Shown: positions 33,278 through 64,000, counted from the first letter of the stretch. The stretch is DNA of 64,000 nucleotides from an uncultured Gemmatimonadales bacterium (GCA_963793305.1 CAWBZV010000003.1:448001-512000); one strand, 5' to 3'. Program-made: numbers and translations. The notes: a model not told the origin generated them from the sequence alone.

Positions 33278-34186
33278 GTGTTGATCGCTGCTTTGATCGG
33301 TAATGTCGCCGATCGTACGAATTTCGCCGGCTCGCTCCGGCGCGAGATCACCGCGCGATTCTGCGCGGATAGCGAGGAGTTGCACTCGCTCGTCGCGACT
33401 GGCGTGGTCGACGCCATCGTGGCTGATCTCGACACGGTCCGCCATGCGAGCCTGTGGCCGAGTGTGCGGGCGATCGTCGACTGGCATCCGACGATTCCGC
33501 TGGTGCTGTGGCTCTCGCTCACCGGCAACGACATGCGCTCGCTCGTGGCGATCGCGAGCGAGATCGCGCTCGACGCGGTGATCATTCGCGAGCTCGATGA
33601 CTGCACGGCCATCATCGCCGGTGCGATCCGGTCGGCGTGTGAGGGGAGTGCGACACAGACCGTGGTGCGGGCGATCGAGCGCCTCGCGCCGCGGTCGGTC
33701 CGTTCGCTCCTCGTCATCGGTGCGCGGCACGCCGAGCGGCCGTTGACGGCGCATGCGTGGGCGGCGAGGGCGGGAGTGTCGCAGCGGACGCTGTTGGCGC
33801 GCGTGCGTGACGCCGGGCTACCTCCGGTGCATCAGCTGATTCGGTGGTTTCGGCTGCTCCATGTCGCGGCGCGGCTCGATATGCCGAAGGCAACGGTGGA
33901 GCGAGTCGTCGAGACAATGCGTTTCACATCGAGTGCGACACTCAGGCATCTGCTCAAGCGGGTGACGGGTCTCTCGCCGGGTCAGCTGCGCGACGCCGGG
34001 GGCTTCGAGTACCTGCTCGGTGTGGTCGAGCTGATGCTGTCGCCGGAGGGCGGCGATACCGCAGCAGATCAGGATTCGCCGCTGGCCGACCTTGGCCGTC
34101 TCGATCAACACCTGCAATCTGCATGGTATGAGTCTCGCGGACCTGACTCGCGCTCATCACGTATGCCGCGAAGAGCGGACCGCTGA
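33278..34186 (+). CDS. AraC-like HTH regulator with receiver-like N-terminal domain (paralog 1)
   Basis: AARAGVSQRTL, LIRWFRLL, FTSSATLRHLLKRVTGLSP. Confidence 0.8.
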   Translation: MLIAALIGNVADRTNFAGSLRREITARFCADSEELHSLVATGVVDAIVADLDTVRHASLWPSVRAIVDWHPTIPLVLWLSLTGNDMRSLVAIASEIALDAVIIRELDDCTAIIAGAIRSACEGSATQTVVRAIERLAPRSVRSLLVIGARHAERPLTAHAWAARAGVSQRTLLARVRDAGLPPVHQLIRWFRLLHVAARLDMPKATVERVVETMRFTSSATLRHLLKRVTGLSPGQLRDAGGFEYLLGVVELMLSPEGGDTAADQDSPLADLGRLDQHLQSAWYESRGPDSRSSRMPRRADR

Positions 34187-35271
34187 TCTCATCCGGCACA
34201 CACGGCGTCAGCTGGACCACTCGATCGCCGCGGAAGTTGACGCGCATGCGCATTGGATCGAGGGGCAGTCGGCCGATCCGCTGCCGTACTATCATTTCGC
34301 CGAGATGTGCAGGTGGTATGGGCACTTGGACCTTTGGCGAGAGGCGGTCGACATCGCGCACGGCCTGTCGCACTACACGCCCGAGCAGCTGATCGAACGC
34401 GCGCACGCCAAGCTGCTGCTCGGCGACTGGTCCGGGTGGCGCGATCGTGAGTCACGCTTCTTTCTTGGCGGCACCGGATTGCCGTATCAGCTGCGCTCGA
34501 TACGCGAGCGCTGGGATGGTCGTGAAGATATCGTCGGCAAGTCGCTGCTCATCGTGTCTGATGGCGGGTTTGGCGACTGCATCCGAGATGCTCCGCTTCC
34601 TGCCGTGGATCACGCGCACGGCTCGTCGGGTCACGCTCGCGGTGCAGCCGGAGCTCGTCGAGCTCGCGACCTACAACTTTCCTGATACGAGTATCTGCAC
34701 GATCCAGGACGCGATCGCCACGTCGTACGACCGGTACGTGTCGGTCCTCTCATTACCAGCGATGGTCGGCGCATTGCCGCCATTCGAGGCTTTGCGAGCG
34801 CCGGTGCCCGCTCGCCACGCCGGCATCGGACTCTGTTGGGCAGGGAGCCCGCTCACGCAGATGGAGCTTCGCCAACCGCTGTCGCTCGATGCGTTCTCTC
34901 CGCTGTTGGCACGCGGCGATGTGAGTTGGTACAGCTTGCAGATTGGCCCGCGCGCGGACGAGGTCGTGAGCTATCCGACGGTCACGGTTCCACCGGAGCC
35001 GCTGTCCACGTTCGCCGAGACGGCGAACCTGATCGCGGGGCTGGACGCCGTGGTGACGGTCGACACGTCGGTGGCACACCTGGCAGGGTGTCTGGGCGTG
35101 CCGACCTTCTTGTTGCTGCATGTCGTCGCCGACCCACGATGGGGGCTTGCTGACGCGACGCCATGGTACCCCTCGATGCGCTTGATTCGGCAGCGGAGGC
35201 CGGGGGACTGGACTGGTGTGATCGACGAGCTCGCGGAGCGCATCGCGGTCACCATCCCGCGTGTGGCGTAG
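34128..35271 (+). CDS. GT9/heptosyltransferase-like protein with short helical N-domain, paralog 1 (frameshift near 34583)
   Basis: AKLLLGDWSGW, WDG, DGGFGDC..MLRF, LDAVVTVDTSVAHLAG, RWG, TPWYPSMRLIRQ..GDW. Confidence 0.82.
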
Positions 35272-35314
35272 TAGAGTCATCGCGCTGTGAGGGTGAATCT
35301 TTCGCGCCCGAGGT

Positions 35315-35608
35315 ATGGGTATGCCACACGACCGATTCGCCGTCACACGGCTCACGCCGGCACAAGGGGTCCGACTCGAGCATCAGGGCAGCCAGCACCT
35401 GCTCGTGAACACCAGGAATGGTGCGCGCTGTGTGCTCAATGCGTTGGGCAAGCGGATCTGGATGCTGCTGGCCGGTCGGCCGACGTTTCCAGCGCTCGTC
35501 GGCGGATTGGGTGGCGCGTACGATCAGCGCCGGGGTGACTTAGTGCGCGACGCCGGGCGTCTGCTGCTCGCGTGGCAAGAGGCCGGCTTGATCACTTGGA
35601 CAAGCTAA
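35315..35608 (+). CDS. PqqD/RiPP recognition element (RRE) protein 1
   Basis: LLVNTRNG..CVLNALGKRIWMLL...LVRD...WQEAGLI. Confidence 0.75.
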   Translation: MGMPHDRFAVTRLTPAQGVRLEHQGSQHLLVNTRNGARCVLNALGKRIWMLLAGRPTFPALVGGLGGAYDQRRGDLVRDAGRLLLAWQEAGLITWTS

Positions 35609-35646
35609 CGGTGCCATCGACACGGCTGCGATGATGCCCGGCTAGC

Positions 35647-36447
35647 ATGGTGACGGTCGGGGCGCTCGTCCGTGACTACGCAACGCAAGACTCGGTGGCG
35701 CTGCAGCTGGCTCGCGTCGCCAATGTGCAGTTCGTCGACAGCGCCGCGGCTCTCGTTCAGCTGGCGGTCGAGTGTCGCGTCGGCGCGTTAATCACTGAGC
35801 TGACCGACGAGGCGGGTCGTTCGGTGGCGCCGATGGTGGTTGAGCTCTTGGCGCGCGCGCCGTCCTTGCCGATCGTGCTCTACGATATCTTGAATCGCCC
35901 GGCGATCCATCGCCTGACGGAAATTCTCGTGCCGGGGCTTCGGATCGAGTTCGTGTTGCGCGACGCCGAGCCGTTAGGGACGACGATGCGTCGCGCATTG
36001 GCGGCGACGTTGCCGGCCTCGGTCGCCCCGGTCTTGCTCGAGCGCTTCTTGCCATTAGCGCCAACCTCGTTGCACGTCTTTCTCGCGGTCGCCGCGCTCA
36101 AGGCCCCGTCGGGCCGGAGCCTCGAGCACCTTGCGCATTGGAGTGGGATCACGCGTCGCACGCTGGCGCGCCGGCTCGCGGCGGCTGGTTGGCGGCCGCC
36201 GAGCGTGGTGTTGCAGACGTTTCGGGCGCTCGACGCGGTGTGGCTGATGACGGTCGATGGGCGCACGGCGCGGCGCGTGCAGGAGTTGCGCGGTCTCGGG
36301 AGTCCGAGCTCGGTGGGGCGGTTGTTGCGGCGATATCTGGGGATCGCGCCGCTCGAGCTTCGTGATGTGGGGGGATTCCCTGCGGCGCTCGACATCGCGG
36401 CGCATGCCATTACTGGTAACCATGCAAGCGCGCTTCGTCACGGCTAG
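35647..36447 (+). CDS. AraC-like HTH regulator (paralog 2)
   Basis: LAHWSGITRRTLARRL, GLGSPSSVGRLLRRYLGIAP. Confidence 0.78.
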   Translation: MVTVGALVRDYATQDSVALQLARVANVQFVDSAAALVQLAVECRVGALITELTDEAGRSVAPMVVELLARAPSLPIVLYDILNRPAIHRLTEILVPGLRIEFVLRDAEPLGTTMRRALAATLPASVAPVLLERFLPLAPTSLHVFLAVAALKAPSGRSLEHLAHWSGITRRTLARRLAAAGWRPPSVVLQTFRALDAVWLMTVDGRTARRVQELRGLGSPSSVGRLLRRYLGIAPLELRDVGGFPAALDIAAHAITGNHASALRHG

Positions 36448-36489
36448 CTCTGTCGGCCGTCACGCGTCGATCTCGCGTGACTCCGAGGT

Positions 36490-36560
36490 GCAACTCTGTC
36501 CCAATCGCGCAACTCTGTCCACCACGGCCGATTCCTGTCCGAAGAGGACGTTGGTAGACT
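36490..36560 (+). promoter_or_regulatory. Direct-repeat operator plus extended -10 upstream of AraC paralog 3
   Basis: GCAACTCTGTCC at 36490 and 36509, partial ..CTGTCC ending 36540; TGgTAGACT at 36552-36560. Confidence 0.55.
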
Positions 36561-36566
36561 GACGCC

Positions 36567-37652
36567 GTGTCGTCGACCGCGAACGCTCGGGCCGTCCGTC
36601 GTCCGTTGGTGCAGGATGCGTGGGACAGGGCAGCGTCGGACGCGCCGATCTGTGTCGCGGCGCTGATTCGGGGGAGCGCCGAGCGCATGCGCTTCGCGAG
36701 CACGCTGTCGCGCACGATCACCGTGCAGTTCGCCGATACGGCAGCCGAGATCATTGATCAGATCACGAACGGTCGAGTAGACGCGGTCATTGTGGGTCTC
36801 CACAACGAGCGTGGTGAGAGCTTAGCGCCGGCCGCGCAATCGATTCGGCGTCGCTTTCCGTTCGTGACCCTCGTGTTCTATCTGTCGCTCGTGGGGGCCG
36901 ATGTCCACGAGGCGTTGGCGTTGGCCTCCAGCATAGCGCCGAGTGCCGTGATCATCCGGGATATCGACGACCTCACCGCGACCATTACACGGGCCGTTCA
37001 CGGCGCGCGCGAGGCCGGCGCGTCGAGCCATATCGTCGCGATGGTCAACCGCGTCGCGGCACCGGGCCTCACGGACACGCTTTCGTTCATCGCTCGCCAC
37101 GCCACTCAGCCGCTGCATGTGGCAGATGTCGCGCAGTACGCTGGTGTCTCCCATCGGACGCTGTTCAACCAGTTCAGCCGCGCGCGGCTGCCGACGGTGG
37201 CGCGCTGCATCCATTGGCTGCGGATTCTGCACGCGACGGCGCGGCTCGAGTCGCCGCACGCCACGGTCGAACAGGTGGCCGACCGGCTGGGGTTCGCGTC
37301 GAGCTCGACACTCCGGCATTTGATCAAGCGGCTCACGTCGATGACGGCGAGCGAGATCCGGCACGAAGGGGGATTCTGGTACTTGCTGCGGCGTACCGAG
37401 TCAGTGCTCAGCGCCGGGTCATCCCCGCGCAGCGATGAGGGTGCGCGCCCGTTCGGCAACGACGGCGCCCATGATGACGACGCCGCTCACGACGCGCTGC
37501 ATGGCGGGGTCGACGTTGGCGAGGTTGAGGGCATTGTTGAGGGCGCCGATGCACACGGCGCCGACGAGTGTGCCGAGTACGCCGCCGCGGCCGCCAGTCA
37601 GCGCTGTGCCGCCGATGACGACGGCCGCGATGACGTCCAGCTCGTACTGTAG
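36567..37652 (+). CDS. AraC-like HTH regulator (paralog 3); 3' end overlaps the convergent permease
   Basis: VADVAQYAGVSHRTL, HWLRIL, TVEQVADRLGFASSSTLRHLIKR. Confidence 0.82.
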   Translation: MSSTANARAVRRPLVQDAWDRAASDAPICVAALIRGSAERMRFASTLSRTITVQFADTAAEIIDQITNGRVDAVIVGLHNERGESLAPAAQSIRRRFPFVTLVFYLSLVGADVHEALALASSIAPSAVIIRDIDDLTATITRAVHGAREAGASSHIVAMVNRVAAPGLTDTLSFIARHATQPLHVADVAQYAGVSHRTLFNQFSRARLPTVARCIHWLRILHATARLESPHATVEQVADRLGFASSSTLRHLIKRLTSMTASEIRHEGGFWYLLRRTESVLSAGSSPRSDEGARPFGNDGAHDDDAAHDALHGGVDVGEVEGIVEGADAHGADECAEYAAAAASQRCAADDDGRDDVQLVL

Positions 37653-38308
37653 CCCGGCGTTGGGCACGCCGGCGCCGAGCCGCGACGCCATGACGGCGCC
37701 GGCGAGACCGACGAGGGCGCCGTTGGCGAGGTAGACCCAGGCAGTGACGGCGCGCGTCGGCACGCCGGCCAGCCAGGACGCCTGCTCGTTGCCTCCGACT
37801 GCGTAGACCCATCGGCCCCAGGTCGTGCGGGTGAGCACGAACCAGCCAATGGCGACGATGATGAGCATGACGATGATCGGGATCGGGCAGTCCGGCGAGT
37901 TTGGTCTGTCCGAGCCAGCCGAACTGGCGTCGGGAGGTCGCCTATCGATCGTCCGCCGCTAAAGAGGAACGCGAGGCCGCGGCAGATCGTGAGGAGCGCG
38001 AGCGTCACTAGAAACGATGGGATGCGCAGAAACGCGACCGCGGTGGCGGTTATGCCACCGGTTGCGACGCCGACCATGATGGCTGAGGCGATGGCGACGA
38101 GCGTCGCCGCGAGGCCACCCAGTGTCGGCTCGAGGGCGTGCGCCGCCAGCGCAGCCACGACGCCGGCGAGCGCGACGACGGAGCCGACGGACAGGTCGAT
38201 GCCGCCGGTGAGGATGATCGCGGTCATCCCGACGGACATGATGCCGACGATGGCGACCGAAAGTGCGACGTTGACGAGGTTGGCGAGCGAGAAGAACGTC
38301 GACAGCAC
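37419..38308 (-). CDS. Ribose-type sugar ABC permease (RbsC family; frameshifts near 37880-37925)
   Basis: GGIDLSVGS, YAVGGNEQAS, YELDVIAAVVIGGTALTGGRG. Confidence 0.88.
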
Positions 38309-38318
38309 GTCTAGCCGA

Positions 38319-43337: not shown

Positions 43338-43338
43338 C

Positions 43339-51775: not shown

Positions 51776-52126
51776 ATGAGCGAAGAACACGGTAATGGTG
51801 CGATGCTATCTGGCGACCATCTCGTCACGATCCCGGAGACGGTCGCGTCGATGCAGGTTGGTGAGGACACGCTCGTCCATGATATGATCACGCAGCGGTT
51901 GCACCGACTCGATGCGGTCGGAACGCGGATCTGGGAGCTGATCGATGCTGGCCACACGGTCGAGGTCATCGTGCAGACGCTCGCCAAGGAGTACCAGTTG
52001 CCGGACGACATGCCACCATCACAGTTACATGACGATGTGTTGGCAATAGTGTCCGACCTGCATCGCCTCGGCTTGGTCCTCAGCGATCACGCCGGCTCGA
52101 GGATCTTGAAATCTACCAACTGCTGA
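51776..52126 (+). CDS. PqqD/RRE protein 2
   Basis: HRLDAVGTRIWELID...IVQTLAKEY...DVLAIVSDLHRLGLV. Confidence 0.85.
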   Translation: MSEEHGNGAMLSGDHLVTIPETVASMQVGEDTLVHDMITQRLHRLDAVGTRIWELIDAGHTVEVIVQTLAKEYQLPDDMPPSQLHDDVLAIVSDLHRLGLVLSDHAGSRILKSTNC

Positions 52127-53171
52127 ACGGTCCAGTTGGAAATCCGTGTACCGGAACGCTGCGCCTGCGCCTGGATATCGGCGGTGGCACGTTGTCCATC
52201 AAAAAGTGGCAGAATGTCAACGATACCCGCCAGCACCACGAGTCGATCAGACGAGCCTAGGCTTTGAAGGTGAGCCACGCTGTCTTTGCCGTTGGTGACC
52301 CAGAACCGTCGGACGCGTAGCCGATCAGGTACCGAGTCAGACACCAACTCGTCGTACGTCTCGCGGCTAAGGCGCGCGGCAAGGCGAACCCGCGGTCCAC
52401 CAATGGCGAGAACATCCGGCCACGACAACACAGATACCAAGCGTGCCGCGCTCGAGTAAAACTCGCGCTCCCGGCCGTTCCATGTATCTCCCCAGGCTTG
52501 TCGATAGAGCGCCGGATCACTCTCATTGTCAATGTCTGCCGCGGTGACGCGCCCGGGCCGTTTGGCGTTGTCGCGCGATGCCAGGAGGTACTTCAGTGCG
52601 GCGCCGCCAATGTCCAGGTGCTCAATGCACCAGAGCTCGATGAGATGACTCGATCTCACTCAGCAAAGACAGGAGACGGCGCCAGAACTCCCGTCCGACG
52701 GATCCCCGCACGACCTGACAGTAATACGTCGAGCAGATAGCGTTTCGGTATCGCCAGAATGCCGCACAGCCCACCAGCTTCGATGTAGTGCGGGCACCTC
52801 AGCCCGCGAGCGACGCCAAAGGCGTGGTCGGCTTGAGCATAGAGCAATGCATATGTTGCTGGCGCATCCAATCCGAACGGCGTGACTCCCACCTTGGCGG
52901 CGATGCGCGCCTCGACCGAGTGACGACCGATGTCTGTTTCGGGCGATGTGTCGTTGAGTATGCCCCCGACGGCGAAGTTCGGGAGGTGGGGGAAAAATGA
53001 GCAGCACTTCACATCGGGTCGGAAGGGTGCCACGCCGGTCTCTGGGGAAGGTCGGCACATGGTGCAGTCCGAACACGTCGCGCGCGATTCGTCAGGAATT
53101 GGACCACCAAACAGGTCCTGCAACCATCTCGCGGTGAGTGGCGGCAACTGCACTGACGCTGGGGAACGCAT
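52087..53171 (-). CDS. Cys-rich YkgJ/CxxCxxCC-like putative Fe-S protein (two frameshifts)
   Basis: CSDCTMC...KCC...CPHY...LCGI; shifted frame WRYRNAICSTYYC; continues into ORF 52087-52659. Confidence 0.65.
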
Positions 53172-53306: not shown

Positions 53307-54455
53307 ATGGGCGAGCTAGCGACCTTTGCGGACTCTTGTGAGGTATTCTTTGCCCAGGCGCAGCTGGGAGAGCGAGCCTCGGGGCGGCTAAGCGCTATTC
53401 GTTGCGATCCAAACAATCCGATACTCATCCATGAGCTCGCCGGCGCGGCCTGGCTCAATGGGCGACCAGATCTGTGGTTGCAGGGCACGGCACTGGCTCT
53501 GCAATTGCCGCACGAGACACCTCAATCACTATTCGTACGCGCCTGCGCAAAACTACGGCTTGGTAATTGGTCTGGATGGCGAGATTACGAAGCGCGGCAT
53601 ATCGGGCCCGGCACCGTGACGTCGGAGTCGGCATATGCACGGGCCTTGGCCTGGACAGCTGTGACGTGTGAGAGTGTCGCCGATCTTCGCGACAAGACAC
53701 TGCTCGTGATTGAAGAGGGCGGATTCGGCGACAGCATTCAATCGATGTGTTTTGTTCCTGCGCTCGTCGCCGCCGCCGAGCGCGTCATCCTGATGGTCAA
53801 GCCGGAGTTGGTCACGTTTTTCGAGCACAATTTCGGAAGCGTGGCCGTGATCGCATCGTCCGAGCATCCCCGCTATGATGGCTTCGATGAGTACATCTGG
53901 AGCTCATCGGTACCGACATTGTTCGAGGAGATTCCGCCATTCGAACGGCTGACCGCTCCCAACCCTCGGCGACGATCTCGTGCCGGGACTGAGCCGTCGC
54001 GCGTGGGGATCTGTTGGGCGGCTCGGGTGTGTGAGCCACATGTGGCCATTCGCCGCTCGATTACCGCGCTCGAAGTGCTGAAGCCACTCTTCGCGCGTAC
54101 CGACATCGTTTGGCAGAGTCTTCAGATCGGTCCGCGCGCCAGCGACATAGCGACGTATCCAGCTGTGCAGGGCGCGGATCCGTCGATAACGACGTTCGCC
54201 GACCTGGCGAATCTGGTATCGGAATTGGATTGCGTCGTGAGCGTCGACACAGCGGTTGCCCATCTCGCGGGAAGGCTCGGTGTCCCGATCTATCTATTGC
54301 TTCCCTACGCAGCAGATTGGCAATGGGGGCTCCATGACACCACGCCATGGTACCCATCGATGCACCTTGTTCGCCAGCAAAGACTCGGCGACTGGGAGAG
54401 CGCGATCGACCTGCTGTTGCGAGAGCTCAGCGGCCGAGGGGTCGCCGTTGGCTGA
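53307..54455 (+). CDS. GT9-like protein, paralog 3
   Basis: AKLRLGNWSGW, EEGGFGDSIQ, LDCVVSVDTAVAHLAG, TPWYPSMHLVRQ; ORF open from 53178. Confidence 0.85.
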   Translation: MGELATFADSCEVFFAQAQLGERASGRLSAIRCDPNNPILIHELAGAAWLNGRPDLWLQGTALALQLPHETPQSLFVRACAKLRLGNWSGWRDYEARHIGPGTVTSESAYARALAWTAVTCESVADLRDKTLLVIEEGGFGDSIQSMCFVPALVAAAERVILMVKPELVTFFEHNFGSVAVIASSEHPRYDGFDEYIWSSSVPTLFEEIPPFERLTAPNPRRRSRAGTEPSRVGICWAARVCEPHVAIRRSITALEVLKPLFARTDIVWQSLQIGPRASDIATYPAVQGADPSITTFADLANLVSELDCVVSVDTAVAHLAGRLGVPIYLLLPYAADWQWGLHDTTPWYPSMHLVRQQRLGDWESAIDLLLRELSGRGVAVG

Positions 54456-55461
54456 TTCGCCGGCTCCGTGCCTCGAGTACCTGGCCGGAATCGACGCGGA
54501 TCACGTGGCGATTGGGGCCGCTATTGCTCGCGCGCCTCTCGATCCATTGCCCGTGTACGACGTGGCGGACTTGTGCCGAAGTCACGGACGTATTGATCTG
54601 TGGGAACGAGCGGTCAACTGGGCGACTGAGCTGCCCCACGATTCTCGCAAGCAGATCCACCGTCGTGGCGCCATGAAGCTCCTCAGAGAGGATTGGTCGG
54701 GTTGGCTCGACTTGGAATCGAGAATCTACGATCCCGCCGCTGGTTATCTCGATACGGAGTTTGTGCGCCACCTCCGATACGAGACGCTGTTCTGGAACGG
54801 CCGCGACGATCTTGCTGGGCGGACGATCCTCGTGATCGCGGACGGAAGCCTTGGCGACTGCCTGCAAATGTTGCGATATGTGCCATTGGTCGCGCGCCGA
54901 GCGGGGCGAGTGATCCTGAGCGTGAGGCCCGAGGCCGCCCGCTTTGTCCGTGAGGTCGTCGGATCGGCGGTGACTATGATGCTCCACGGGGCCAGTCCAG
55001 ACATTGCTTATGACTACTATGTATGGTTGATGTCATTGCCAGCCCTGCTCGACACGCTCCCGCCACCTCTGCCTGTGCCGTTCCATACAACCCCAATTTC
55101 CTGCACGTATGGAGTGTATTGGACGAGCGATCTGTCTTATGAAGGTGTGCGATGGCTCAACCTGCGTGAGCCGGCGGCACCACTGGTCACTCTTTTCGAG
55201 GCGGCGAAGGTGGTGACGACGCTCAGTGGGATCGTGACCATCGATACGACGGTGGCGCACCTCGCCGGAACGCTTGGTGTACCCACATGGTTGCTGCTGG
55301 AGACGCTTGCCGATGCCCGTTGGGGACTCGGCCAGACGACGCCCTGGTATCCTTGCATGCGAATAATCCGTCAGCAGACTCGAGGCGAGTGGACTTCCGT
55401 CATTGCCGAACTACGAGCATCGATAGACGCCAGCCTCGCTTCGCCTTCGCAGTGCGCGTAG
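54448..55461 (+). CDS. GT9-like protein, paralog 4
   Basis: TTG start after GAGGGG; EDWSGW, DGSLGDCLQMLRY, TIDTTVAHLAG, TPWYPCMRIIRQ. Confidence 0.85.
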   Translation: MADSPAPCLEYLAGIDADHVAIGAAIARAPLDPLPVYDVADLCRSHGRIDLWERAVNWATELPHDSRKQIHRRGAMKLLREDWSGWLDLESRIYDPAAGYLDTEFVRHLRYETLFWNGRDDLAGRTILVIADGSLGDCLQMLRYVPLVARRAGRVILSVRPEAARFVREVVGSAVTMMLHGASPDIAYDYYVWLMSLPALLDTLPPPLPVPFHTTPISCTYGVYWTSDLSYEGVRWLNLREPAAPLVTLFEAAKVVTTLSGIVTIDTTVAHLAGTLGVPTWLLLETLADARWGLGQTTPWYPCMRIIRQQTRGEWTSVIAELRASIDASLASPSQCA

Positions 55462-55523: not shown

Positions 55524-56648
55524 ATGGCGTCCATAAGTCTGATCGCTGATCTCCTCAGAACCTGTGCCGATCGACTGCCGGCGGATAGCGAGCCGGATTT
55601 CGAGGAGGTGCGCTCCTCGATGGTCGCGAAATCCAACCTGCTGGCGCTCTATCGCCTCGCGGCGTTGTGTCGCAAACACGGTTATCTCGACCTGTGGCAT
55701 CTCGTCACCAGAAGTGCCCTCGCCATGCCGCATCACGCGTTCGAGCATCTGTACCATCGCGGCAACGCGAAGCTTCTGCTCGATGATTGGTCTGGTTGGG
55801 TCGATCGAGAAGTCCGAGTCCATGATCCCGCGGCTGGATACTTGGCATCCGAATACGTGCGCCAGATCCGCTACAAAACGATCGAATGGGATGGCCAAGA
55901 AATCATCGCAGACAAGACCATCTTGATTCTGGCTGACGGTGATTGTGGTGACTGCATTCAAATGCTCCGTTTCATACCACCACTGGTCGAGCGTTGCCGT
56001 GGTGTCATACTGAGCGTGCGGCCCGAGATGGCCTCATTGGTCAAGCATAACGTTGGCCATCTTGCCTCCATCACGTTCCATGGCATCGACTGCGGCCCTT
56101 TCGAGCGATATGCGTGGTTGATGTCACTGCCCGCTTTGTTCGGCTGTCTGCCGGTATTCACGCCAATGACAGCGCTCAGGCCCAGGACGAGGGCGACGAA
56201 TGCTCGTTACCCCGTCGACATTGGTGTGTGTTGGTCCGAGGGCGGTGATCGCTCAATCGCGCTCGATGAACTTGCGCCACTCTTCGGGCGTCGCGATTGG
56301 CGATGGCATAGCCTTCAACTGGCAGGCGCTGGTGAAGGCGATGGCGACTCCTTTCGCGGGTGTCCGGCGATTCGCCTGCGCACTCTCGCCGATGCCGCGA
56401 ACTACGTGATGGGACTGGACTGTGTCGTGAGTGTCGACGCGGCAGTCGCGCACCTCGCCGGCGCGCTGGGCCTGCCGACGTTGACATTGCTGCGCTCGTC
56501 GGCAGATGCGCGATGGGGGTTGAACGATACCACGCCGTGGTATCCGTCCATGCGGCTGATTCGTCAACGCGCCGCAGGGGATTGGCGAAGCGCCATCCAG
56601 GCACTGGGCGCCGGTATCGAGGCGATCGCGGTCGACCTCGCCGCCTAA
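55524..56648 (+). CDS. GT9-like protein, paralog 5
   Basis: DDWSGW, DGDCGDCIQMLRF, SVDAAVAHLAGALG, TPWYPSMRLIRQ. Confidence 0.85.
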   Translation: MASISLIADLLRTCADRLPADSEPDFEEVRSSMVAKSNLLALYRLAALCRKHGYLDLWHLVTRSALAMPHHAFEHLYHRGNAKLLLDDWSGWVDREVRVHDPAAGYLASEYVRQIRYKTIEWDGQEIIADKTILILADGDCGDCIQMLRFIPPLVERCRGVILSVRPEMASLVKHNVGHLASITFHGIDCGPFERYAWLMSLPALFGCLPVFTPMTALRPRTRATNARYPVDIGVCWSEGGDRSIALDELAPLFGRRDWRWHSLQLAGAGEGDGDSFRGCPAIRLRTLADAANYVMGLDCVVSVDAAVAHLAGALGLPTLTLLRSSADARWGLNDTTPWYPSMRLIRQRAAGDWRSAIQALGAGIEAIAVDLAA

Positions 56649-57787
56649 TGGGTATGCCATCCTCCGCTGGGGTCGTGGAATGGGTCGATGCATGCCGACA
56701 CACTTTCGCCGATCGCGCCGAGGCCTACCGAGTCGCGTTGTACGCGTCACTCGTGGATCCTCAGGGCGATACGCCAATACCTCTGTACCGCCTCGCGAAA
56801 GCCTGCCTGGATAGTGGAGAGTGGTTGCTGTGGCACCAGGGAGTCATGTTCGCGTTCACCCTTGAACACCGAACGGCTCAATCACTCTGCGAGCGAGCGC
56901 TCGCCAAGCTCAGGTTAGGCGACTGGTCCGCATGGCGCGACTATGAGGCTCATGCAAAAAGCCCCGCCTTCAGCGTCGCCCACGCAACGTGGCTTCGCTG
57001 GCGGTACCCGCTATGGGACGGTACCCAGGATATTCGGGATCAAACACTCCTCGTCCAACGGATGGGCGGCTATGGCAATGTGATCTGGTCGCTGCGGTTC
57101 ATTCCACCCATTGCAACACGCGTTCGCCGGCTCATCTGGGATACCAGTCCGGCGCTCATGGATTTTGTGCGATACAACATGAGCCATCTGGCCGCGGTGG
57201 AATCAGTCGATCGCGACCCGCCCGACTTGGACTTCGATTGGCATGTCTGGTGTATGTCGCTTCCGCACGTCAACGGCGGGATACCGCCGTTCGTTCCGCT
57301 CACGGCTCCAGATCCAATCCAATGGCCTCGCTCCCCTGAAAGGCGACTGCGAGTTGGTCTGTGCTGGGCATGCAGCGACGAGGCGCTCGATCAACTGGAG
57401 CGGTCCATTGCATTGAGTTTCTTGGCGCCGCTTTTTTGGCATCCGGGCGTGGAGTGGTACAACCTGCAGGTCGGATCGAGAGCGCACGATAGCGACTACT
57501 ATCCAGGCGTCAAGCAACCACCATTTCCGCTCCGCACATTTGTCGACACCGCGAATTTGCTGGTCGGGTTGGATTGCGTCATCTCGGTGGACACGGCTAT
57601 CTGTCATCTAGCGGGGAGTCTCGGCGTGCCAACGCTGACACTACTCCGCTGTACCGCTGATGCGAAGTGGGGGCATCTCGACACGACGCCTCTCTATCCC
57701 TCCATGCGCTTGATTCGTCAACGGACTCCGGGCGATTGGCTCGGGGTGGCCGAGACCGTGCGTGAGGAACTCAATGCCCGTCTCTGA
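56648..57787 (+). CDS. GT9-like protein, paralog 6 (GD motif altered to GN)
   Basis: TAATG coupling; LGDWSAW, GGYGNVIWSLRF, SVDTAICHLAG, TPLYPSMRLIRQ. Confidence 0.85.
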   Translation: MGMPSSAGVVEWVDACRHTFADRAEAYRVALYASLVDPQGDTPIPLYRLAKACLDSGEWLLWHQGVMFAFTLEHRTAQSLCERALAKLRLGDWSAWRDYEAHAKSPAFSVAHATWLRWRYPLWDGTQDIRDQTLLVQRMGGYGNVIWSLRFIPPIATRVRRLIWDTSPALMDFVRYNMSHLAAVESVDRDPPDLDFDWHVWCMSLPHVNGGIPPFVPLTAPDPIQWPRSPERRLRVGLCWACSDEALDQLERSIALSFLAPLFWHPGVEWYNLQVGSRAHDSDYYPGVKQPPFPLRTFVDTANLLVGLDCVISVDTAICHLAGSLGVPTLTLLRCTADAKWGHLDTTPLYPSMRLIRQRTPGDWLGVAETVREELNARL

Positions 57788-58697
57788 TCCGTACCGACTC
57801 TATCAAGTCGCCGAATCGCATCGAGAGTGCGGCGATGAGGAAAGTTGGAAAGAGATCGTGATGGACGCCTTTCAGCTCCCTCATCGGACCAAGCAACAAC
57901 TCTTCTATCGAGGCCAAGCGAAGATCGCGCTCGGTGATTGGTCTGGTTGGGTCGACCGCGAGGCGCGACTGTTCAACCCCGACGAACAATTGTGGCGTTG
58001 CTCGTACTGGCGCCAGGTACGGGCGAAGACGAAGGCTTGGGATGGCAAAGAGGATATCCGGGACAAGGCACTGTTCGTCATCGCCGATGGAGATGATGGC
58101 GATTGTCTGCAAATGCTCCGATTCATTCCGGATCTCACCGCGAAGGTCGACACGCTCATCCTCGGTGTCAGTCCTGCACTGCTGTCACTCGTGAAGCACT
58201 TTTTCGCCTCAAAGGTGACGGTGACGTTTCGAGAGGTCGATCACGGGCTGCCGTTCCAGCGGTATACATGGATCATGTCGTTACCAGCGCTCTGCGGCGC
58301 ACTTCCGCCGATCGTGCCATTCACCGCGCCCAGACCGCAATCGCCCCCTCGCCTGGCAGATGGGCGTTTTCACGTCGGCCTGTGGACAGCGCCAGAATCT
58401 GTTCCTCCTGCGACACTCGCCGGCATAACAAGCGCACTGGCACGTGACGACATCCAATGGCACGACCTGCGACTGGGCACCGGCGCCATCCGAACGTATG
58501 CTGATGCCGCGAACGTTATCGTGGGCCTGGACTACGTGGTGAGTATCGACTCGCCAATTGCCCATCTCGCGGGTTTGCTCGCGGTGCCGACGCTCGTGTT
58601 TCTCAGCTGCCGAGCTGATCTCCGGTGGGGATTGACCGAGACAACGCCATGGTATCCCTCGATGCACATCACCCGACACTTTGGAGACTCCGTATGA
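57774..58697 (+). CDS. GT9-like protein, paralog 7 (short C-terminus)
   Basis: GAGGA RBS; LGDWSGW, DGDDGDCLQMLRF, SIDSPIAHLAG, TPWYPSMH. Confidence 0.85.
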   Translation: MPVSDPYRLYQVAESHRECGDEESWKEIVMDAFQLPHRTKQQLFYRGQAKIALGDWSGWVDREARLFNPDEQLWRCSYWRQVRAKTKAWDGKEDIRDKALFVIADGDDGDCLQMLRFIPDLTAKVDTLILGVSPALLSLVKHFFASKVTVTFREVDHGLPFQRYTWIMSLPALCGALPPIVPFTAPRPQSPPRLADGRFHVGLWTAPESVPPATLAGITSALARDDIQWHDLRLGTGAIRTYADAANVIVGLDYVVSIDSPIAHLAGLLAVPTLVFLSCRADLRWGLTETTPWYPSMHITRHFGDSV

Positions 58698-58822
58698 CAA
58701 CCGCGTATCGAAAGCCGACGATCCTCTGCCTTGGCGCCGCCGAGGTCTTGACTCGTGGAGGGTTCGGAAACAGGCCCGAACTCCGCACAGGTCCAACTAG
58801 CATCTCCCTGCTCGATCTCTGA
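58694..58822 (+). CDS. Lasso peptide precursor (42 aa)
   Basis: MTTAYRKPTILCLGAAEVLTR|GGFGNRPELRTGPTSISLLDL: YxxPx(I/L) leader motif, G..LT with Thr at -2, core Gly1 and Glu8; GGAGA RBS; ATGA-coupled. Confidence 0.88.
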   Translation: MTTAYRKPTILCLGAAEVLTRGGFGNRPELRTGPTSISLLDL

Positions 58823-58831
58823 GGCAGGTAC

Positions 58832-59992
58832 ATGCCATCGAGCGAACAGCTCCTCGATGAGTGTATTCGTCGGTTGAGTCCAAGCAATGCGGCGGCGCTA
58901 CTGCCACGGTTCCGATCGGCATTCGAGCGGTATCCCATCGCGCCGCCGCTCCTGTATAGCATCGCGACCCTGTGCCTGCAGTTCGGATACGAGGAGTTGT
59001 GGGAGCACTACGATCGTCTCGCCTTTGCCCTGCCTCACGCCACCAACGAGGATTTTTATTTTCGATCCGTGGCGAAGCTTCGTCGGAGCGACTGGTCCGG
59101 GTGGTTGGACCGAGAAGCCAGGCTCATCAGCCCGCATGAAGCGCCGATCTGGTACCCGCACTTCCTCGAAATGCAATGGACGACGCGCGCCTGGGACGGT
59201 GTAGAACCGATTCAGGATAAAACACTGTTGGCGATCGCCAATGGCGGGTTCGGCGACTGCTTGCAGATGATACGGTATATGCCGCGTCTGGCGGCAATAG
59301 CTGGTTCGCTCATCATCGCGGTGCGGCCGCAAATCCTCTCGTTGGTCGAGCACAATTTCGGGCGGATCGCCACGGTCGTGTCGACAGAGCGCTTACCATT
59401 GATACCCTTTCAGCGGTACGTGTGGATGATGTCCCTTCCCGCATTGATCGGATCCATACCGGCCTTCGACGCGCTCAGGACTCCCAGCGCGACTCCGGCC
59501 GCTCCGCGTGAGGGCCGGTTGCGAGTCGGTCTCAATTGGGCCGGCACTTCACATCATCCGAACGATCGCGACGACAACCTCCGCTCCATCACACTCGACG
59601 ACCTCTCACCGCTGCTGGAGCTCGAGTGGGTCACATGGTATAGCGTGCAAGTTGGGCGGTGGGCCTCCGACGCCGATCACAATGCCCGCATCGTGCAACC
59701 CTCGACGCCGATCCGAAGTTTTGAAGATTCCGCCAATCTCGTCGCTGCTCTAGACTGCGTCGTGACGATCGACACGGCGGTTGCGCATTTGGCCGGCAGC
59801 CTCAATGTACCAACGTTAGTACTCCTGACATGGCTGCCGGAATTTCGCTGGGGTCTCGTCAGCGAGCGTACGCCATGGTACCCAAGCCTTCTGTTGATCC
59901 GACAAACGTCGCCCGGCGACTGGCCTGGCGTGTTCGATCGAACCTTCCAGCATCTGCGGGCGCTTTATACCGGGGCAGCTGCTTCAGCGTAA
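58832..59992 (+). CDS. GT9-like protein, paralog 8
   Basis: SDWSGW, NGGFGDCLQMIRY, VGLNWAG, TIDTAVAHLAG, TPWYPSLLLIRQ..GDW. Confidence 0.85.
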   Translation: MPSSEQLLDECIRRLSPSNAAALLPRFRSAFERYPIAPPLLYSIATLCLQFGYEELWEHYDRLAFALPHATNEDFYFRSVAKLRRSDWSGWLDREARLISPHEAPIWYPHFLEMQWTTRAWDGVEPIQDKTLLAIANGGFGDCLQMIRYMPRLAAIAGSLIIAVRPQILSLVEHNFGRIATVVSTERLPLIPFQRYVWMMSLPALIGSIPAFDALRTPSATPAAPREGRLRVGLNWAGTSHHPNDRDDNLRSITLDDLSPLLELEWVTWYSVQVGRWASDADHNARIVQPSTPIRSFEDSANLVAALDCVVTIDTAVAHLAGSLNVPTLVLLTWLPEFRWGLVSERTPWYPSLLLIRQTSPGDWPGVFDRTFQHLRALYTGAAASA

Positions 59993-61105
59993 GTCTCATC
60001 GAGCAGCGTATTCACCTGAGCGATCGAGCTCGACCAGTCGCCTGGTGCGCATTGCCGAATGAGCCGCATCGCGGGATACCACGGCGTGACGTCCCCTAGT
60101 CCCCACCGCCAGTGGGAATCGTATTGCAAGAGCAGCCATGTTGGAACGCCGAGATTCCCCGCCAGAATGACACACTGAGGTGTCCACGCTGACCACGTAG
60201 TCCAGTTCCGTGATCAGGTCCGCCGTGTCGCCGTAAGTGACGAGTGGCGGATCAGGATTGATCAATGCGGGGTAATCGTTGGCGTCCGCGACGCGATCGC
60301 CGACTTGGAGGCTGTACCATTCCACGTCATCTCGTGCGAGCAACGGCACCGTCTCGGCGATAGGCATTGACCGATCTGGATCCTGCGTGAAGTCGGGACT
60401 GCCGGCCCAGCAGACGCCGGCCCGGATGGGTCGCGTCCGTGGCGGCATTTTGGGACGCCGTCGTGGTGCGGCAAGCGCGGTGAAATCGGGAAGCCGGCCG
60501 AACGTACCTGGCAGCGACATGCTCCACACATACCGGTCGAACGGTATCGTGGGTTTGATCCCATCCAGCCATATTTTGGCGAGTGAGCCGAAGTTGAATC
60601 GAGCGAGAGGGGCCAATCGCGGATACACCATCATGAAGACGGCGCTGGCTATTTCGGTCAACGGCGGAATGAATCGCCACATCTGGAGGCAATCGCCGTA
60701 TCCCTGCTCCGGCAGCACCAGGATAGACTTGTCCGCGAGATCCTCCTTGCCGTCCCACATGCAATGCTTCCAGCAGATATCTCGATATTTGTCCAGATCT
60801 TCGATGGTGTCCGGCGCCCCCAGGCGCGCGCTGTACTCAGCCCATCCGTTCCACTCGCCGCGCTCGATCTTGGCCAGGGCGCGCGCGTAGGTCTGTTGTG
60901 GTGTCACGTGGGGTAGCGCCAGCGCGAGATCGACCTGGTGCTGCCAATCGGGATCGCCTCGCCGTCGAAGCGTGAACGCGAGGAGATAGCGCGGCATGGG
61001 GTTGGCCGGCTGCTGCTCGGCGACGGTTGTCAATTCTTCCGCCGTATAAATGGTGCGGGGGCAACGTCGGTGTGTCGGCACCGGTTCGGAGGTCGGCGCC
61101 GTCAT
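59965..61105 (-). CDS. GT9-like protein, paralog 9 (frameshift near 60165)
   Basis: GEWNGW, EQGYGDCLQMWRF, GVCWAGSP, SVDTSVCH; shifted frame LAGNLGVPTW...WRWG...TPWYPAMRLIRQ..GDW. Confidence 0.85.
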
Positions 61106-61449
61106 GGTTCGGCGTGACCAGAGGCGACGTTGGGCTCGGTTTCCAGCAATCCGTATTCGCTGAGCGCGGTGACGATCGTCAACACATCGCGTTGCACTTG
61201 CCCCGGCGCGACATCCACGGGCATGGCGTATTCGGCTTCGATCGTCGCGACGATTGATCGTATCGTCGCGCCGCCTTCCAGCAATTCCCAAATGCGGCTG
61301 CCAATGTCATTGAGCCGGTAATTTGCGTGAGTTTGAAGATTGTGAACCACGGTATCGGTATCACCTGGCGCGGCCACCGCATATGCGGAAACCGTGACAC
61401 CGCTGTTGATATCGAGTCGTGCGCGTGTCGTACCTTCAAGCTCGCTCAT
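61102..61449 (-). CDS. PqqD/RRE protein 3
   Basis: YRLNDIGSRIWELL...IVATIEAEY...DVLTIVTALSEYGLL; close paralog of 51776-52126. Confidence 0.85.
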   Translation of the reverse strand: MSELEGTTRARLDINSGVTVSAYAVAAPGDTDTVVHNLQTHANYRLNDIGSRIWELLEGGATIRSIVATIEAEYAMPVDVAPGQVQRDVLTIVTALSEYGLLETEPNVASGHAEP

Positions 61450-61787: not shown

Positions 61788-62099
61788 GTGTTGTTCACCC
61801 AGCGACCCCAACCAGTGTCTCCGACGGACGCGCGGCGATATCGCGCGATCCCTGGAGTGCTGTCGGGGTGCTTTGAGGAAGAAACCTTCCTGTTGAGTCT
61901 CGCGACAGGTCGGTACTACAAGCTCGACAACGTCGGAACTGAGGTGTGGCAGCTGCTGCGCCAACCGAAGGCGTTTCCCGACATCGTGAGCGACTTGGGG
62001 CAGGTCTATGACATCGCTCCGTCGACGCTAGCGGCGGATGTCGCTGAGCTCATGAACCGCCTCCTTGGCTACAGGGTCATCGAGGTCATCAACTCATGA
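61788..62099 (+). CDS. Lasso peptide B1 (PqqD/RRE) protein
   Basis: LLSLATGRYYKLDNVGTEVWQLL...YDI...LAADV; coupled to B2. Confidence 0.88.
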   Translation: MLFTQRPQPVSPTDARRYRAIPGVLSGCFEEETFLLSLATGRYYKLDNVGTEVWQLLRQPKAFPDIVSDLGQVYDIAPSTLAADVAELMNRLLGYRVIEVINS

Positions 62100-62479
62100 C
62101 ACTACCGAGTGTGATGCACTGTTTCGGACGAATGCTGGCCATAAAAGTGTCGCTCAAAACTCGCGGCTTGGGCGCGACGCTCTCGCGGTACTGCCAATCG
62201 CCGACGGACGTTCGTCGCGACGACTCGATCAGCGATGACCTCGTCGACCAAGTGGCGTTTCAGGTCGCCGGCGCCGCCGCGCTGTTTCCGGGGCGCGCCC
62301 TCTGTCTCGAGCAAACGCTCGTACTGCATGGAGAGTTGCTGCGCATCGGTGTCGACTCTCGGATCCGGTTCGCTGTCACGCCGTATCCATTCAAAGCGCA
62401 CGCGTGGATCGAAGTGCGAGGTCGTCCGATCAATGAGAATCTGCATTGGCTCAGCCAGATGACACTTCTCGAGACTTAA
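62096..62479 (+). CDS. Lasso peptide B2 leader peptidase (transglutaminase-like)
   Basis: ALCLEQ (Cys), PFKAHAWIE (His). Confidence 0.92.
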   Translation: MTLPSVMHCFGRMLAIKVSLKTRGLGATLSRYCQSPTDVRRDDSISDDLVDQVAFQVAGAAALFPGRALCLEQTLVLHGELLRIGVDSRIRFAVTPYPFKAHAWIEVRGRPINENLHWLSQMTLLET

Positions 62480-62484
62480 TCACC

Positions 62485-64000
62485 GTGGATACCTTCGTCT
62501 GCCTGATGAATACGCGTGGCCACGGTGTCGTCCCCGAGTCACGTCGGCGGTACGGGCTCGATGACACCGGCTGGCAGTCAGCTGGACCATGCAGCATGTA
62601 TGTCTCAAATGATGGATACGGTCCCGTGGCATCGATCTATCGCGGATCGATTGGCATCGCCGCAGGCATCATCCGCCTCGACAACCGCGTCGAGATCCGG
62701 CGCCAACTTCGGGCAAGCGACGACCAGTCCGATATCGCGTTGGTCGCCGCCGTGCTGCATCGCCGAGGCGTCGACGGCGTGCAGGAGCTCGTGGGCGATT
62801 TTGCGCTGGCGTATTGGGACGTTGCGCGGTCGGAATTGATCATCGCGCGGGACTTCATCGGAGTTCGCCCGCTTTATCGCGTACAGGACGGTGATCTGTG
62901 GGGGTTCGCCTCCCACGCGGGCGTTCTTGGCCGGGGACGGGAGCTGTCGCTCGAATTCGTCGCGGACTACATCGCGTTCAATGTGTCGAGACAGCGCACA
63001 CCATATGCCGGCGTGTTTGCCGTCCCTGCCGGAACCGCCCAGGTGCTCAACGGTCGGCGGAGCACCGAGCATCGGTATTGGTCCGCCTATCGGTTCTCGA
63101 CCGATGATCGGATCGACAGCAACGAGGCGGTCGAAGCGTTCAGGCCTTTATTCACCGAAGCGATTCGGCTGCGTCTGACCGGAAAGCAGGACTGCTGGGC
63201 AGATCTCTCTGGTGGTCTCGATTCGTCATCGGTTGTCTCGATGAGTCAGTGGCTCGCGAAGCACGACGGCGCCGTGCACGGCTTGGCGGGAACCTTGACG
63301 TACGCAGACACGCTCGGCACTGGCGACGAGCGGCCGTACGCGAACGCGGTGATTCGCGATTGGCCTCTGCCGAATGAACAATTGATCGACTACGGATTGT
63401 GGCAGGACGACGGCGAGCCGCCCCTTGTCGCGGATATTCCGGACCAGTCGTCCGCGTCGTACGCTCGAGAGCGGCGAGTCTGTCGGATCGTTCGGTCAGC
63501 GGGCGGCCGCGTGCTATTCACCGGAGTGGGCCCCGATCAAATGCTCTTCGGCAACTATGTGTATTTCGCTGATTGGCTCGTGCGGGGGCGAATTCGCGAG
63601 GCGGCTCGGGGGATGTTTCGACTCGCCGCGCTGGGCAGAGGGTCATTCTGGAAATTCGCGTATGAGAACGCCATCAGGCCGTTCTTTGGATCGCCGGCGC
63701 TGAAACGTGAAGCGTGGCCGGCATGGGTTCGGCCCGAGTTCGCACGTCGATTCGCGATCCACGAACGCAATCCAATGGCGTGGACCCCTCGCGGCCGACC
63801 GGGCCGCTACTTTGCCACGGACCTTGCGGGCAACATCGACATCATCACACATGCGATGATCCGCGGCGTGGTCGGTGATATGCTCGACATCCGGAGTCCC
63901 TTCCTGCATCGCCCGCTGGTCGAGCTCTGTCTGCAACTCTCTCCGCAGGTGCTGGCGAGGCCGCGGGACCAGAAGTGGGTCCTCCGCCAAGCGATGCGAG
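62485..64000 (+). CDS. Lasso peptide cyclase C (asparagine synthetase-like), 3' truncated by window
   Basis: Manual frame-1 translation: RLDNR, GDFALAYWD, ARDFIGVRPLY, LSGGLDSS, RSPFLHRPLVE, KWVLRQAM; lacks the AsnB N-terminal MCGI. Confidence 0.9.
   Translation, partial: MDTFVCLMNTRGHGVVPESRRRYGLDDTGWQSAGPCSMYVSNDGYGPVASIYRGSIGIAAGIIRLDNRVEIRRQLRASDDQSDIALVAAVLHRRGVDGVQELVGDFALAYWDVARSELIIARDFIGVRPLYRVQDGDLWGFASHAGVLGRGRELSLEFVADYIAFNVSRQRTPYAGVFAVPAGTAQVLNGRRSTEHRYWSAYRFSTDDRIDSNEAVEAFRPLFTEAIRLRLTGKQDCWADLSGGLDSSSVVSMSQWLAKHDGAVHGLAGTLTYADTLGTGDERPYANAVIRDWPLPNEQLIDYGLWQDDGEPPLVADIPDQSSASYARERRVCRIVRSAGGRVLFTGVGPDQMLFGNYVYFADWLVRGRIREAARGMFRLAALGRGSFWKFAYENAIRPFFGSPALKREAWPAWVRPEFARRFAIHERNPMAWTPRGRPGRYFATDLAGNIDIITHAMIRGVVGDMLDIRSPFLHRPLVELCLQLSPQVLARPRDQKWVLRQAMR

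Follow-up and report, generated by a model that had tools for sequence, protein, structure and literature searches.

In lasso peptide biosynthesis, an RRE (the element that recognises the precursor in pathways to RiPPs, peptides made on the ribosome and modified after translation) binds the YxxP leader of the precursor, the B1, B2 and C proteins remove the leader and cyclise the peptide, and an ATP-binding cassette (ABC) transporter exports it; RREs bind leaders, and the mature lasso peptide has none. Glycosyltransferases (GTs) known from RiPP pathways are few and, in the sources cited here, mostly of the GT2 type, such as IgtG of the igt cluster, which produces the davasins, a group of glycosylated lasso peptides (PMC11912497). 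Precedents exist for B1-assisted tailoring of lasso precursors (PMC9266682) and for separate RREs serving two pathways in one host (PMC13381572), and lasso clusters have been reported in the present phylum, with no GT detail in the part of that source available (PMC11316326). TibC demonstrates that the GT9 fold can heptosylate a protein and uses Asp110 as its base (PMC4358343), and in WaaC Asp13 is the base and Asp261 and His266 bind the heptose (bioRxiv 2021.06.16.448588). Here, a lasso peptide cluster accompanied by nine GT paralogs is described from a 64,000-nt stretch of DNA, called the window hereafter, of an uncultured Gemmatimonadales bacterium (GCA_963793305.1 CAWBZV010000003.1:448001-512000; C3:448001-512000 of genome G000, 5.7 Mb in 26 contigs). 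The lasso cluster is real and carries a new candidate tailoring family; with a probability of about 0.6, it specifies RRE-guided O-glycosylation of the precursor by a recruited lineage of proteins combining tetratricopeptide repeats (TPR) with a GT9 fold.

The features concerned are the following; positions beyond the window end are given in locus L001, where the position equals the window position minus 60000.

34128..35271, plus strand: GT paralog 1, base Asp present, frameshift near 34575
48572..49705, minus strand: GT paralog 2, with Ala in place of the catalytic Asp, a probable pseudo-enzyme as judged from its sequence
53307..54455, plus strand: GT paralog 3, intact, catalytic Asp present
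54448..55461, plus strand: GT paralog 4, Asp retained, part of the donor-binding lobe deleted according to alignments
55524..56648, plus strand: GT paralog 5, intact, catalytic Asp present
56648..57787, plus strand: GT paralog 6, with Asn in place of the catalytic Asp
57774..58697, plus strand: GT paralog 7, Asp present, donor lobe shortened and C-terminal helix missing according to alignments
58694-58822, plus strand: lasso precursor with a predicted Gly1-Glu8 ring, within the GT operon
58832..59992, plus strand: GT paralog 8, intact, with D142, D314 and H319; modelled as a TPR pair plus a GT9-type GT-B fold
59965..61105 (split, 59965/59996), minus strand: GT paralog 9, of the RRE-coupled sub-clade, base Asp present, frameshift near 60160
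61102..61449, minus strand: stand-alone RRE (PF05402, 50.9 bits), its stop overlapping the start of paralog 9
61788..62099, plus strand: lasso B1 (RRE; PF05402, 55.4 bits), immediately 5' of B2
62096..62479, plus strand: lasso B2 leader peptidase with Cys70 and His102 motifs (PF13471, 63 bits)
62446..64000, plus strand: lasso cyclase C (PF00733, 74 bits; PF13537; ATP-loop motif), leaving the window, with its stop at L001:4299, 299 bases beyond the window end

B1, B2, C, an ABC exporter, a precursor, the nine paralogs and three further PqqD proteins had been named in a first-pass annotation of the window, and Pfam and tblastn searches located all of them at or near the positions it gave; the searches it had called for with PF05402, PF13471 and PF00733 all matched the genes named. 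The PqqD (PF05402) matches, at 35315, 51776, 61102 (minus strand) and 61788, scored 32-55 bits with a cut-off of 23.4. B2 passed the NCBIfam lasso model NF033537 (53.1 versus a cut-off of 33), the top NCBIfam match of C was the lasso cyclase NF033535 (173.6, under the cut-off of 525), and B1 fell below the threshold of the lasso PqqD model (50.2 versus 80). A B1/RRE, a B2 with Cys and His, an asparagine-synthetase-like cyclase and a precursor with a YxxP leader, by which a lasso cluster is recognised, are all encoded here.

The coupling of one GT group to an RRE was observed repeatedly. Paralog 9 belongs to a sub-clade of 10 rows (Shimodaira-Hasegawa-like approximate likelihood ratio test, SH-aLRT, 98), in which an RRE gene lies directly upstream of the GT gene in all seven members with DNA context, overlapping it by 4-8 bases or lying 2 bases apart; none of the 29 lineage members outside the sub-clade that have context shows this arrangement. 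In P0013, an eighth member, RRE and GT are fused; no second PqqD-bearing protein was found among the 112 matches to it. Outside the window, 12 loci of the lineage were compared, nine from metagenomes and those of genomes G001, G004 and G005; the metagenome scan had given 11 loci, from which L046 and L053 were dropped as duplicates of L023 and L024. Co-occurrence of the GTs with lasso genes elsewhere, the absence of which had been set beforehand as a ground for refuting the proposal, was observed, with B2 present in seven of the 12 (G001, G005, L045, L047, L051, L054 and L055) and the gene order RRE-GT-B2 in five (G001, G005, L047, L054 and L055). An RRE without B2 was present in two (G004 and L050), and neither gene in three, namely L048 (20 kb, six GTs), L049 (4.7 kb) and L052 (11 kb). 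The full orders were ABC-RRE-GT-B2-C-precursors-S9-SusC in G001 and ABC-GT-RRE-GT-B2-C-precursors-S9-SusC-FecR in G005, and both clusters, like the window, follow the same amino-acid permease. Control loci around generic TPR-GT relatives contained RRE, B2 or C in 0 of 5 cases (12-20 kb each). The lineage was found with three precursor families. At the head of the G005 cluster, L023:5217-6410 showed a weak methyltransferase match plus a second domain. In L052 (4387-11038), the surroundings of two lineage GTs include an ABC exporter, a DUF6065 gene and a class II lanthipeptide synthetase truncated to its dehydratase part, and the lineage may join other RiPP classes too.

An AlphaFold2 model was made of one paralog, paralog 8 (mean predicted local distance difference test, pLDDT, 90.3). 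It matched the GT9 structure 3tov with Z 17.0 (root-mean-square deviation, rmsd, 3.3; 243 aligned residues), the protein heptosyltransferase TibC with Z 16.2 (rmsd 3.3; 249 aligned), WaaF with Z 15.9 (rmsd 3.3; 236 aligned) and WaaC with Z 15.5 (rmsd 3.4; 230 aligned); a plant NDH complex subunit (7wff, Z 14.2) came next, followed by matches of 10.6 or less. Foldseek agreed with a GT9-type fold, and positions 12-87 of the paralog profile matched consensus TPR proteins. As modelled, the paralogs are a TPR pair plus a GT9-type GT-B fold, and no GT2 match to Pfam was found among the open reading frames (ORFs) of the window. Of the GT9-like assignment made in the first-pass annotation, which had called for a PF01075 search, the fold stood (Z 15.5-17.0) and the full-length profile match did not: PF01075 matched just a C-terminal stretch of 33-61 residues out of 247 positions, and four of the nine paralogs exceeded the cut-off. 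A profile alignment with the separate, canonical GT9 proteins that G000 also encodes covered 46 columns and did not confirm the N-terminal Asp. Nor are the paralogs lipopolysaccharide heptosyltransferase I, the best TIGR02193 score among the eight scanned being 23.7 versus 185.3 bits.

Model residue 130 aligned to residue 1 of WaaC and WaaF, at the level of aligned ranges; since the range begins at 130 versus 1, D142 falls in register with WaaC Asp13 and would be the equivalent base in this model. D314 and H319 belong to the part whose sequence can be aligned with that of WaaC. The GxGD motif, earlier given as shared by the paralogs, was present in seven of the nine, the base Asp being replaced by Ala in the paralog at 48572 and by Asn in that at 56648. 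Across the lineage the base Asp was conserved in 75 of 78 proteins, including all 10 members of the RRE-coupled sub-clade, and the His in 78 of 78.

Because window paralog 9 is frameshifted, orthologs from G001 were folded instead, its RRE, its GT and a single precursor in one complex, together with three controls. The complex scored 0.79, and the best of the controls, which included one with the RRE replaced, scored 0.00. Among solved complexes, 116 of 157 come up to the score mark used, compared with 2 of 215 mismatched pairs, a calibration that is rough for a three-chain job with its own alignments. The runs shared at least 50% of contacts, and partner pLDDT was at least 83. In the predicted interface, RRE sheet 29-52 packs against GT residues 152-177 and 276-280. 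Sub-clade-specific GT positions made up 6 of 18 interface positions versus 24 of 302 elsewhere (Fisher p 0.003), an enrichment that is not independent of the model because the alignments were fed to it and the rows are related. The prediction supports docking of the RRE on the acceptor lobe of the GT. We know of no solved RRE-GT9 complex, and none was present among the profile and structure-search matches.

The precursor at 58694 overlaps paralog 7 by 4 bases and ends 9 bases before paralog 8. It is the one precursor held by the window in a six-frame leader scan, and it matched the NCBIfam benenodin-precursor model weakly (E 0.0016, below the cut-off). Beyond the end of the window come four more copies, at L001:4489-4620, 4648-4782, 4900-5028 (TTG start) and 5037-about 5170 (frameshifted), and a common Ser/Thr-rich tail closes all five, the fifth only after the frameshift. 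The features sought in a precursor, a YxxP leader, Thr at -2 and Asp/Glu at 7-9, were found at 58694 (Glu8) and L001:4489 (Glu9); in the three other copies the acceptor is Glu10 counted from the first Thr and Glu9 from the second. When the usual register is applied, which places Thr at -2, Glu10 is the sole acceptor Glu in six precursors of two families (L001:4648, 4900 and 5037; L023:13442, 13580 and 13936), and the acceptor is at 8 or 9 in six of six GT-less precursors. The Glu10 precursors have either ten-residue rings or a shifted cleavage register. Ser/Thr richness was rejected as evidence for glycosylation, GT-linked cores being no richer than GT-less ones; acceptor residues are present in the cores, yet they are no argument for glycosylation.

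As to the sugar donor, L048 encodes, one gene upstream of its six lineage GTs, a heptose adenylyltransferase and an epimerase that both exceed their cut-offs, in a group that also contains an HAD hydrolase gene and a heptose-kinase-like gene below cut-off. This region (L048:5365-17190) is of the sugar ABC/GH38 type, with apparent transposase remains and SusC 3' of the GTs; the 20 kb of the locus contain no lasso genes. G000 has dispersed hldC and hldD homologs, and its kinase and GmhA matches were below cut-off. Given glycosylation, the GT9 fold and the heptose genes of L048 and G000 make ADP-heptose the best guess, and it would be the likeliest donor at roughly even odds.

Searching the whole genome with tblastn gave paralogs at 10 places, nine in the window and one on contig C2; pairwise identity was about 29-47%. 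As assembled, three of the nine (53307, 55524 and 58832) are intact with every catalytic feature tested, and two more would qualify if their frameshifts are assembly errors; about four are probably inactive or structural. Paralogs 1 and 9, the ABC gene and a gene for a Cys-rich protein (see below) are split by frameshifts in the assembly, which looks indel-prone. Sugar ABC permease, BlaR-like and ROK genes are also split, at window positions 37400-44300. Paralog 1 is intact in G004 (92% DNA identity, one 1-base gap), and a contig of run X1 is one base shorter at 52642, a break in the Cys-rich gene; no indel is listed at the ABC break in the contigs of runs X1 and X2, which gave no depth over the bin that contains the paralog 9 frameshift. 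With the intact G004 copy, the X1 base missing at the Cys-rich break and the split transporter and kinase genes nearby, assembly error is likely, for paralog 9 less firmly, as judged from these sequences.

The remaining RREs of the window and their neighbours are as follows.

33278..34186, plus strand: AraC-type regulator 1 (PF12833, 46 bits), 91-92% identical in G004 and G001
35315..35608, plus strand: stand-alone RRE (PF05402, 31.7 bits), travelling with AraC regulators
35647..37652, plus strand: AraC-type regulators 2 and 3 (PF12833)
51776..52126, plus strand: stand-alone RRE (PF05402, 49.4 bits), adjoining the Cys-rich protein
52087..53171, minus strand: Cys-rich (YkgJ/CxxCxxCC-like) protein, split in this assembly

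The RRE at 51776 is the probable partner of the Cys-rich protein, because the pair is adjacent in L050 and fused in L047. Orthologs of the Cys-rich protein were found at L047:2034-3458 (the RRE fusion), L083:14209-15372 and in L050, and G005 has the protein too, in a lasso cluster that lacks a GT. At least 458 relatives of the protein were found, its CxxCxxCC match is weak and it fits no Pfam family firmly; it is a candidate second RiPP tailoring enzyme. According to Atlas the family is common in Myxococcota, and over the C-terminal 85 residues there is a weak alignment with a PqqD-like model. The module 33278-37652, which is set about 11 kb from the lasso block with sugar-uptake, protease and transport genes between, behaves as a separate unit. 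In G001 the order AraC-RRE-AraC-AraC persists, with paralog 1 absent from it. An RRE among AraC regulators, with or without a GT, was observed in four genomes (window 33278-37652; L024:5488-8887; L088:16560-19674; L084:4820-5958); the module possibly senses leader peptides for regulation. The idea that all four RREs are GT partners was rejected, as that at 35315 is kept without a GT in G001 and that at 51776 pairs with the Cys-rich protein. The earlier picture of nine GTs and four RREs as one multi-glycosylation machine is likewise not supported, three of nine paralogs being intact with all tested catalytic features and two extra RREs having other partners.

The cluster extends about 10 kb beyond the window end. 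Its accessory genes, and a protease pair adjoining the GT block, are as follows.

49775..51650, minus strand: ABC exporter, PF00005 in each half, frameshift near 50396
45655..48575, minus strand: TldE/TldD-like protease pair (PF19289/PF01523), adjoining the GT block
L001:5170-13746, beyond the window and 3' of the precursor copies: S9 peptidase, SusD-like, SusC, FecR and ECF (extracytoplasmic function) sigma genes

The ABC exporter ortholog in L050 is unbroken. The S9 peptidase scored 86 bits with the isopeptidase model NF033523 (cut-off 400), Dpp5 being nearly equal at 84, the TonB-dependent transporter 376.9 versus 368 with TIGR04056, FecR gave E 1e-15, and the ECF sigma factor scored 82 versus 43 with TIGR02937. 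A GntR regulator was not found ahead of the precursors, which are preceded by the cyclase and by GT paralog 7. The cluster is probably of the isopeptidase/TonB-transporter type plus an exporter. Membership of the TldE/TldD pair is uncertain; such a pair also adjoins two lineage GTs in L049 (L049:3-2017), at the same permease site as in the window, and the TldD N-terminus is twin-arginine-like. Two more lasso clusters without lineage GTs were observed in G000, at C3:763800-767200 (L026) and C5:654700-657000 (L085), the former with three precursors, SusC/SusD, an S9 peptidase and an ABC gene.

A quick tree was computed by maximum likelihood from 53 sequences of the short type and 24 generic ones, with rows picked by query similarity and both frameshift halves of paralog 1 omitted; the 53 fell on one side of a branch (SH-aLRT 99). 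The window paralogs sat in different sub-clades beside relatives from other genomes, and the array therefore appears old and diversified; recent tandem duplication as its origin was rejected on the same spread in this quick tree. The parent TPR-GT family comprises 22,508 representatives at E below 1e-30, its best matches being mostly proteins with 3-6 tandem domain copies, so copy number alone says little in a family this large and readily multiplied. Many proteins among P0105-P0253 have 1,200-3,100 residues and 3-6 tandem TPR-GT copies, and Atlas lists phage-rich clusters of the single-domain form. No functional study of the TPR-GT family was found in a search of the literature on TPR with GT9. 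Close homologs of the window GTs are assigned by their sources to Gemmatimonadaceae, the probable family of the present bacterium. A profile of the N-terminal part gave no match in 400 further genomes drawn from the phylum. In the family, likewise represented by 400 genomes, strong matches occurred in three of five genus mates, and four weak matches (E about 1e-7, about 30% identity) lay in loci of 2-3 kb without a lasso or RRE match. Scans by pattern relied on one peptide pattern and undercount, because it missed the G001 gene. L081, a Bacteroidetes record matched with E 9e-5 over 24 residues, was dropped, having no match to the full profile.

A pathway can be proposed from these observations. 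The RRE would capture the precursor by its YxxP leader, as in established lasso biology, and would dock on the acceptor lobe of a GT of the paralog 9 type, the coupling and fusion being observed and the docking predicted. The GT base equivalent to WaaC Asp13 might then transfer a sugar to a core Ser/Thr before ring closure, after which leader cleavage and cyclisation by B1, B2 and C and export by the ABC transporter would follow the established route. By analogy, re-import by SusC/SusD, ring opening by the S9 peptidase and signalling through FecR/ECF could complete the pathway. The remaining intact paralogs probably attach additional sugars or act on other copies of the precursor, and it is unlikely that most of the nine act serially on one peptide. 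A bolder version would have the products as the first heptosylated RiPPs: the RRE hands lasso precursors to the GT9-fold lineage, sister paralogs extend or vary the glycan over the five precursor copies, the second RRE serves a Cys-rich metalloprotein, and combinatorial glyco-lasso signals, some possibly with ten-residue rings, are re-imported by SusC/SusD. In this extended form the proposal appears doubtful.

Several observations weigh against precursor glycosylation. Glycosylation is a proposal drawn here from genes and models. Against nine working enzymes and multiple glycosylation, the base Asp is lost in two paralogs, two are truncated or deleted in part, and two are frameshifted in the assembly. 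The Asp/Asp/His set is equally conserved in generic relatives (89, 92 and 94 of 96), and because these keep the same residues, the set points to neither a peptide substrate nor a proven heptose. B2 was not seen in five of the 12 other loci, a lineage GT is present at only 3 of the 13 lasso B2 loci of the genus, and the loci are probably close kin rather than independent origins. The fusion is represented by one cluster, whose two sequences agree at 489 of 490 positions, and two of the three extra RREs pair with proteins other than a GT. The predicted complex consists of G001 proteins, with three chains and its own alignments, outside the calibration, and of the 11 residues by which the G001 RRE is predicted to make contact, the window RRE at 61102 shares 1. 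The heptose genes of L048, in a sugar-uptake region, may be unrelated to the GTs. Core Ser/Thr content was 94 of 368 residues (25.5%) in 16 GT-linked precursors versus 45 of 166 (27.1%) in six GT-less ones, a count omitting the frameshifted fifth copy of G000 and copies missed by the motif scan (two in L047).

Three other explanations were weighed. The GT-fold proteins could belong to the lasso system yet be non-catalytic on the peptide, acting instead as adaptors that bind the RRE, as chaperones or in regulating the flow of precursor. Loss of the base Asp in two of nine paralogs, donor-lobe deletions in two, cores without a Ser/Thr signal and a fold that also matches the plant NDH subunit (7wff, Z 14.2), which we take to be non-catalytic, all suit such a role; retention of the base Asp in 75 of 78 lineage proteins and 10 of 10 RRE-coupled members is unlike a pseudo-enzyme family and makes it quite improbable. 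The possibility that the finished lasso peptide is modified after cyclisation, the RRE contact being incidental or the two merely co-locating, draws on IgtG, which acts only on the mature lasso peptide (PMC11912497), and on the eight of nine window paralogs that have no RRE directly upstream. However, RREs bind leaders, which the mature peptide does not have, and the coupling, the fusion and the predicted interface suit a leader-bearing substrate, so that post-cyclisation action appears about equally improbable.

The GTs might instead be hitch-hikers of a variable genomic island that act on other proteins or on surface glycans. The parent family is vast (22,508 representatives) and duplication-prone, GC content is lower in the array (0.605 versus 0.653), paralog 1 comes and goes, and L048, L049 and L052 show no lasso genes. 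Set against this are the GT between RRE and B2 in five relatives with its start overlapping the RRE stop, the precursor inside the window GT operon and the occurrence of the lineage with three precursor families; hitch-hiking is a poor explanation for the array as a whole and may hold for some non-coupled paralogs. RRE-guided glycosylation of the precursor is thus preferred.

Compared with described glycosylated lasso peptides, the present cluster resembles that of the davasins in having a GT of its own, the davasins being O-glycosylated at Ser with up to four sugars; IgtG is a single GT2 enzyme acting on the mature lasso peptide, whereas several GT-B/GT9-fold proteins are encoded here, and because one of them is coupled to an RRE the precursor is the proposed substrate. 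Pseudomycoidin of the psm cluster is likewise a glycosylated lasso peptide, but its hexoses are placed by the nucleotidyltransferase PsmN on a phosphate added by a kinase (PMC9266682, PMC11912497), and no psm-type kinase or nucleotidyltransferase was found among the scanned ORFs of the window and its flank. The S9 peptidase, TonB-dependent transporter and sigma/anti-sigma pair are shared with the isopeptidase clusters of the astexin group, and the ABC transporter also with rubrinodin (PMC9266682), from which the cluster differs by SusC/SusD, extra RREs, the GT array, the Cys-rich protein and the lack of GntR before the precursors.

Among enzymes, WaaC, WaaF and TibC share the fold (Z 15.5-16.2), with residues in register with WaaC Asp13, Asp261 and His266 (PMC4358343, bioRxiv 2021.06.16.448588); they differ in sequence (10-15% identity, far under the WaaC cut-off) and lack the N-terminal TPR pair and the RiPP context. 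FlmG, compared by architecture only, also has a TPR followed by a GT-B domain and O-glycosylates a protein in the cytoplasm as a soluble enzyme (PMC7591256, bioRxiv 2023.12.03.569772). It has a flagellin-binding TPR of about 300 residues and a pseudaminic or legionaminic acid (Pse/Leg) donor, unlike the TPR of about 75 residues plus RRE partner found here, and eight generic relatives gave no NCBIfam match to a FlmG model.

RRE-GT fusions have been recovered by genome mining and read as a sign of RiPP glycosylation (PMC7470986, PMC12710340). The 2025 fusions (PMC12710340) are of PF00535 (GT2), unlike the one described here; the GT family in Fig. S7 or the supplements of PMC7470986 could be the present family. 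No GT9-fold RiPP enzyme was found in the literature on lasso peptides, RiPPs or RREs with glycosyltransferase, heptose or GT9, a search with most subscription journals outside its scope. If the reading is true, RRE guidance of a GT9-fold enzyme would bring a new chemistry to peptide tailoring, and a leader-directed GT would be a portable tool for site-directed peptide glycosylation. The very large TPR-GT family would gain from the system a substrate that is both small and defined, and G001 presents a minimal version of the system, RRE-GT-B2-C plus precursors. Glycosylated lasso peptides and RRE-GT fusions were thus already known, and what the present cluster adds to them is a GT9-fold lineage as a candidate lasso tailoring family.

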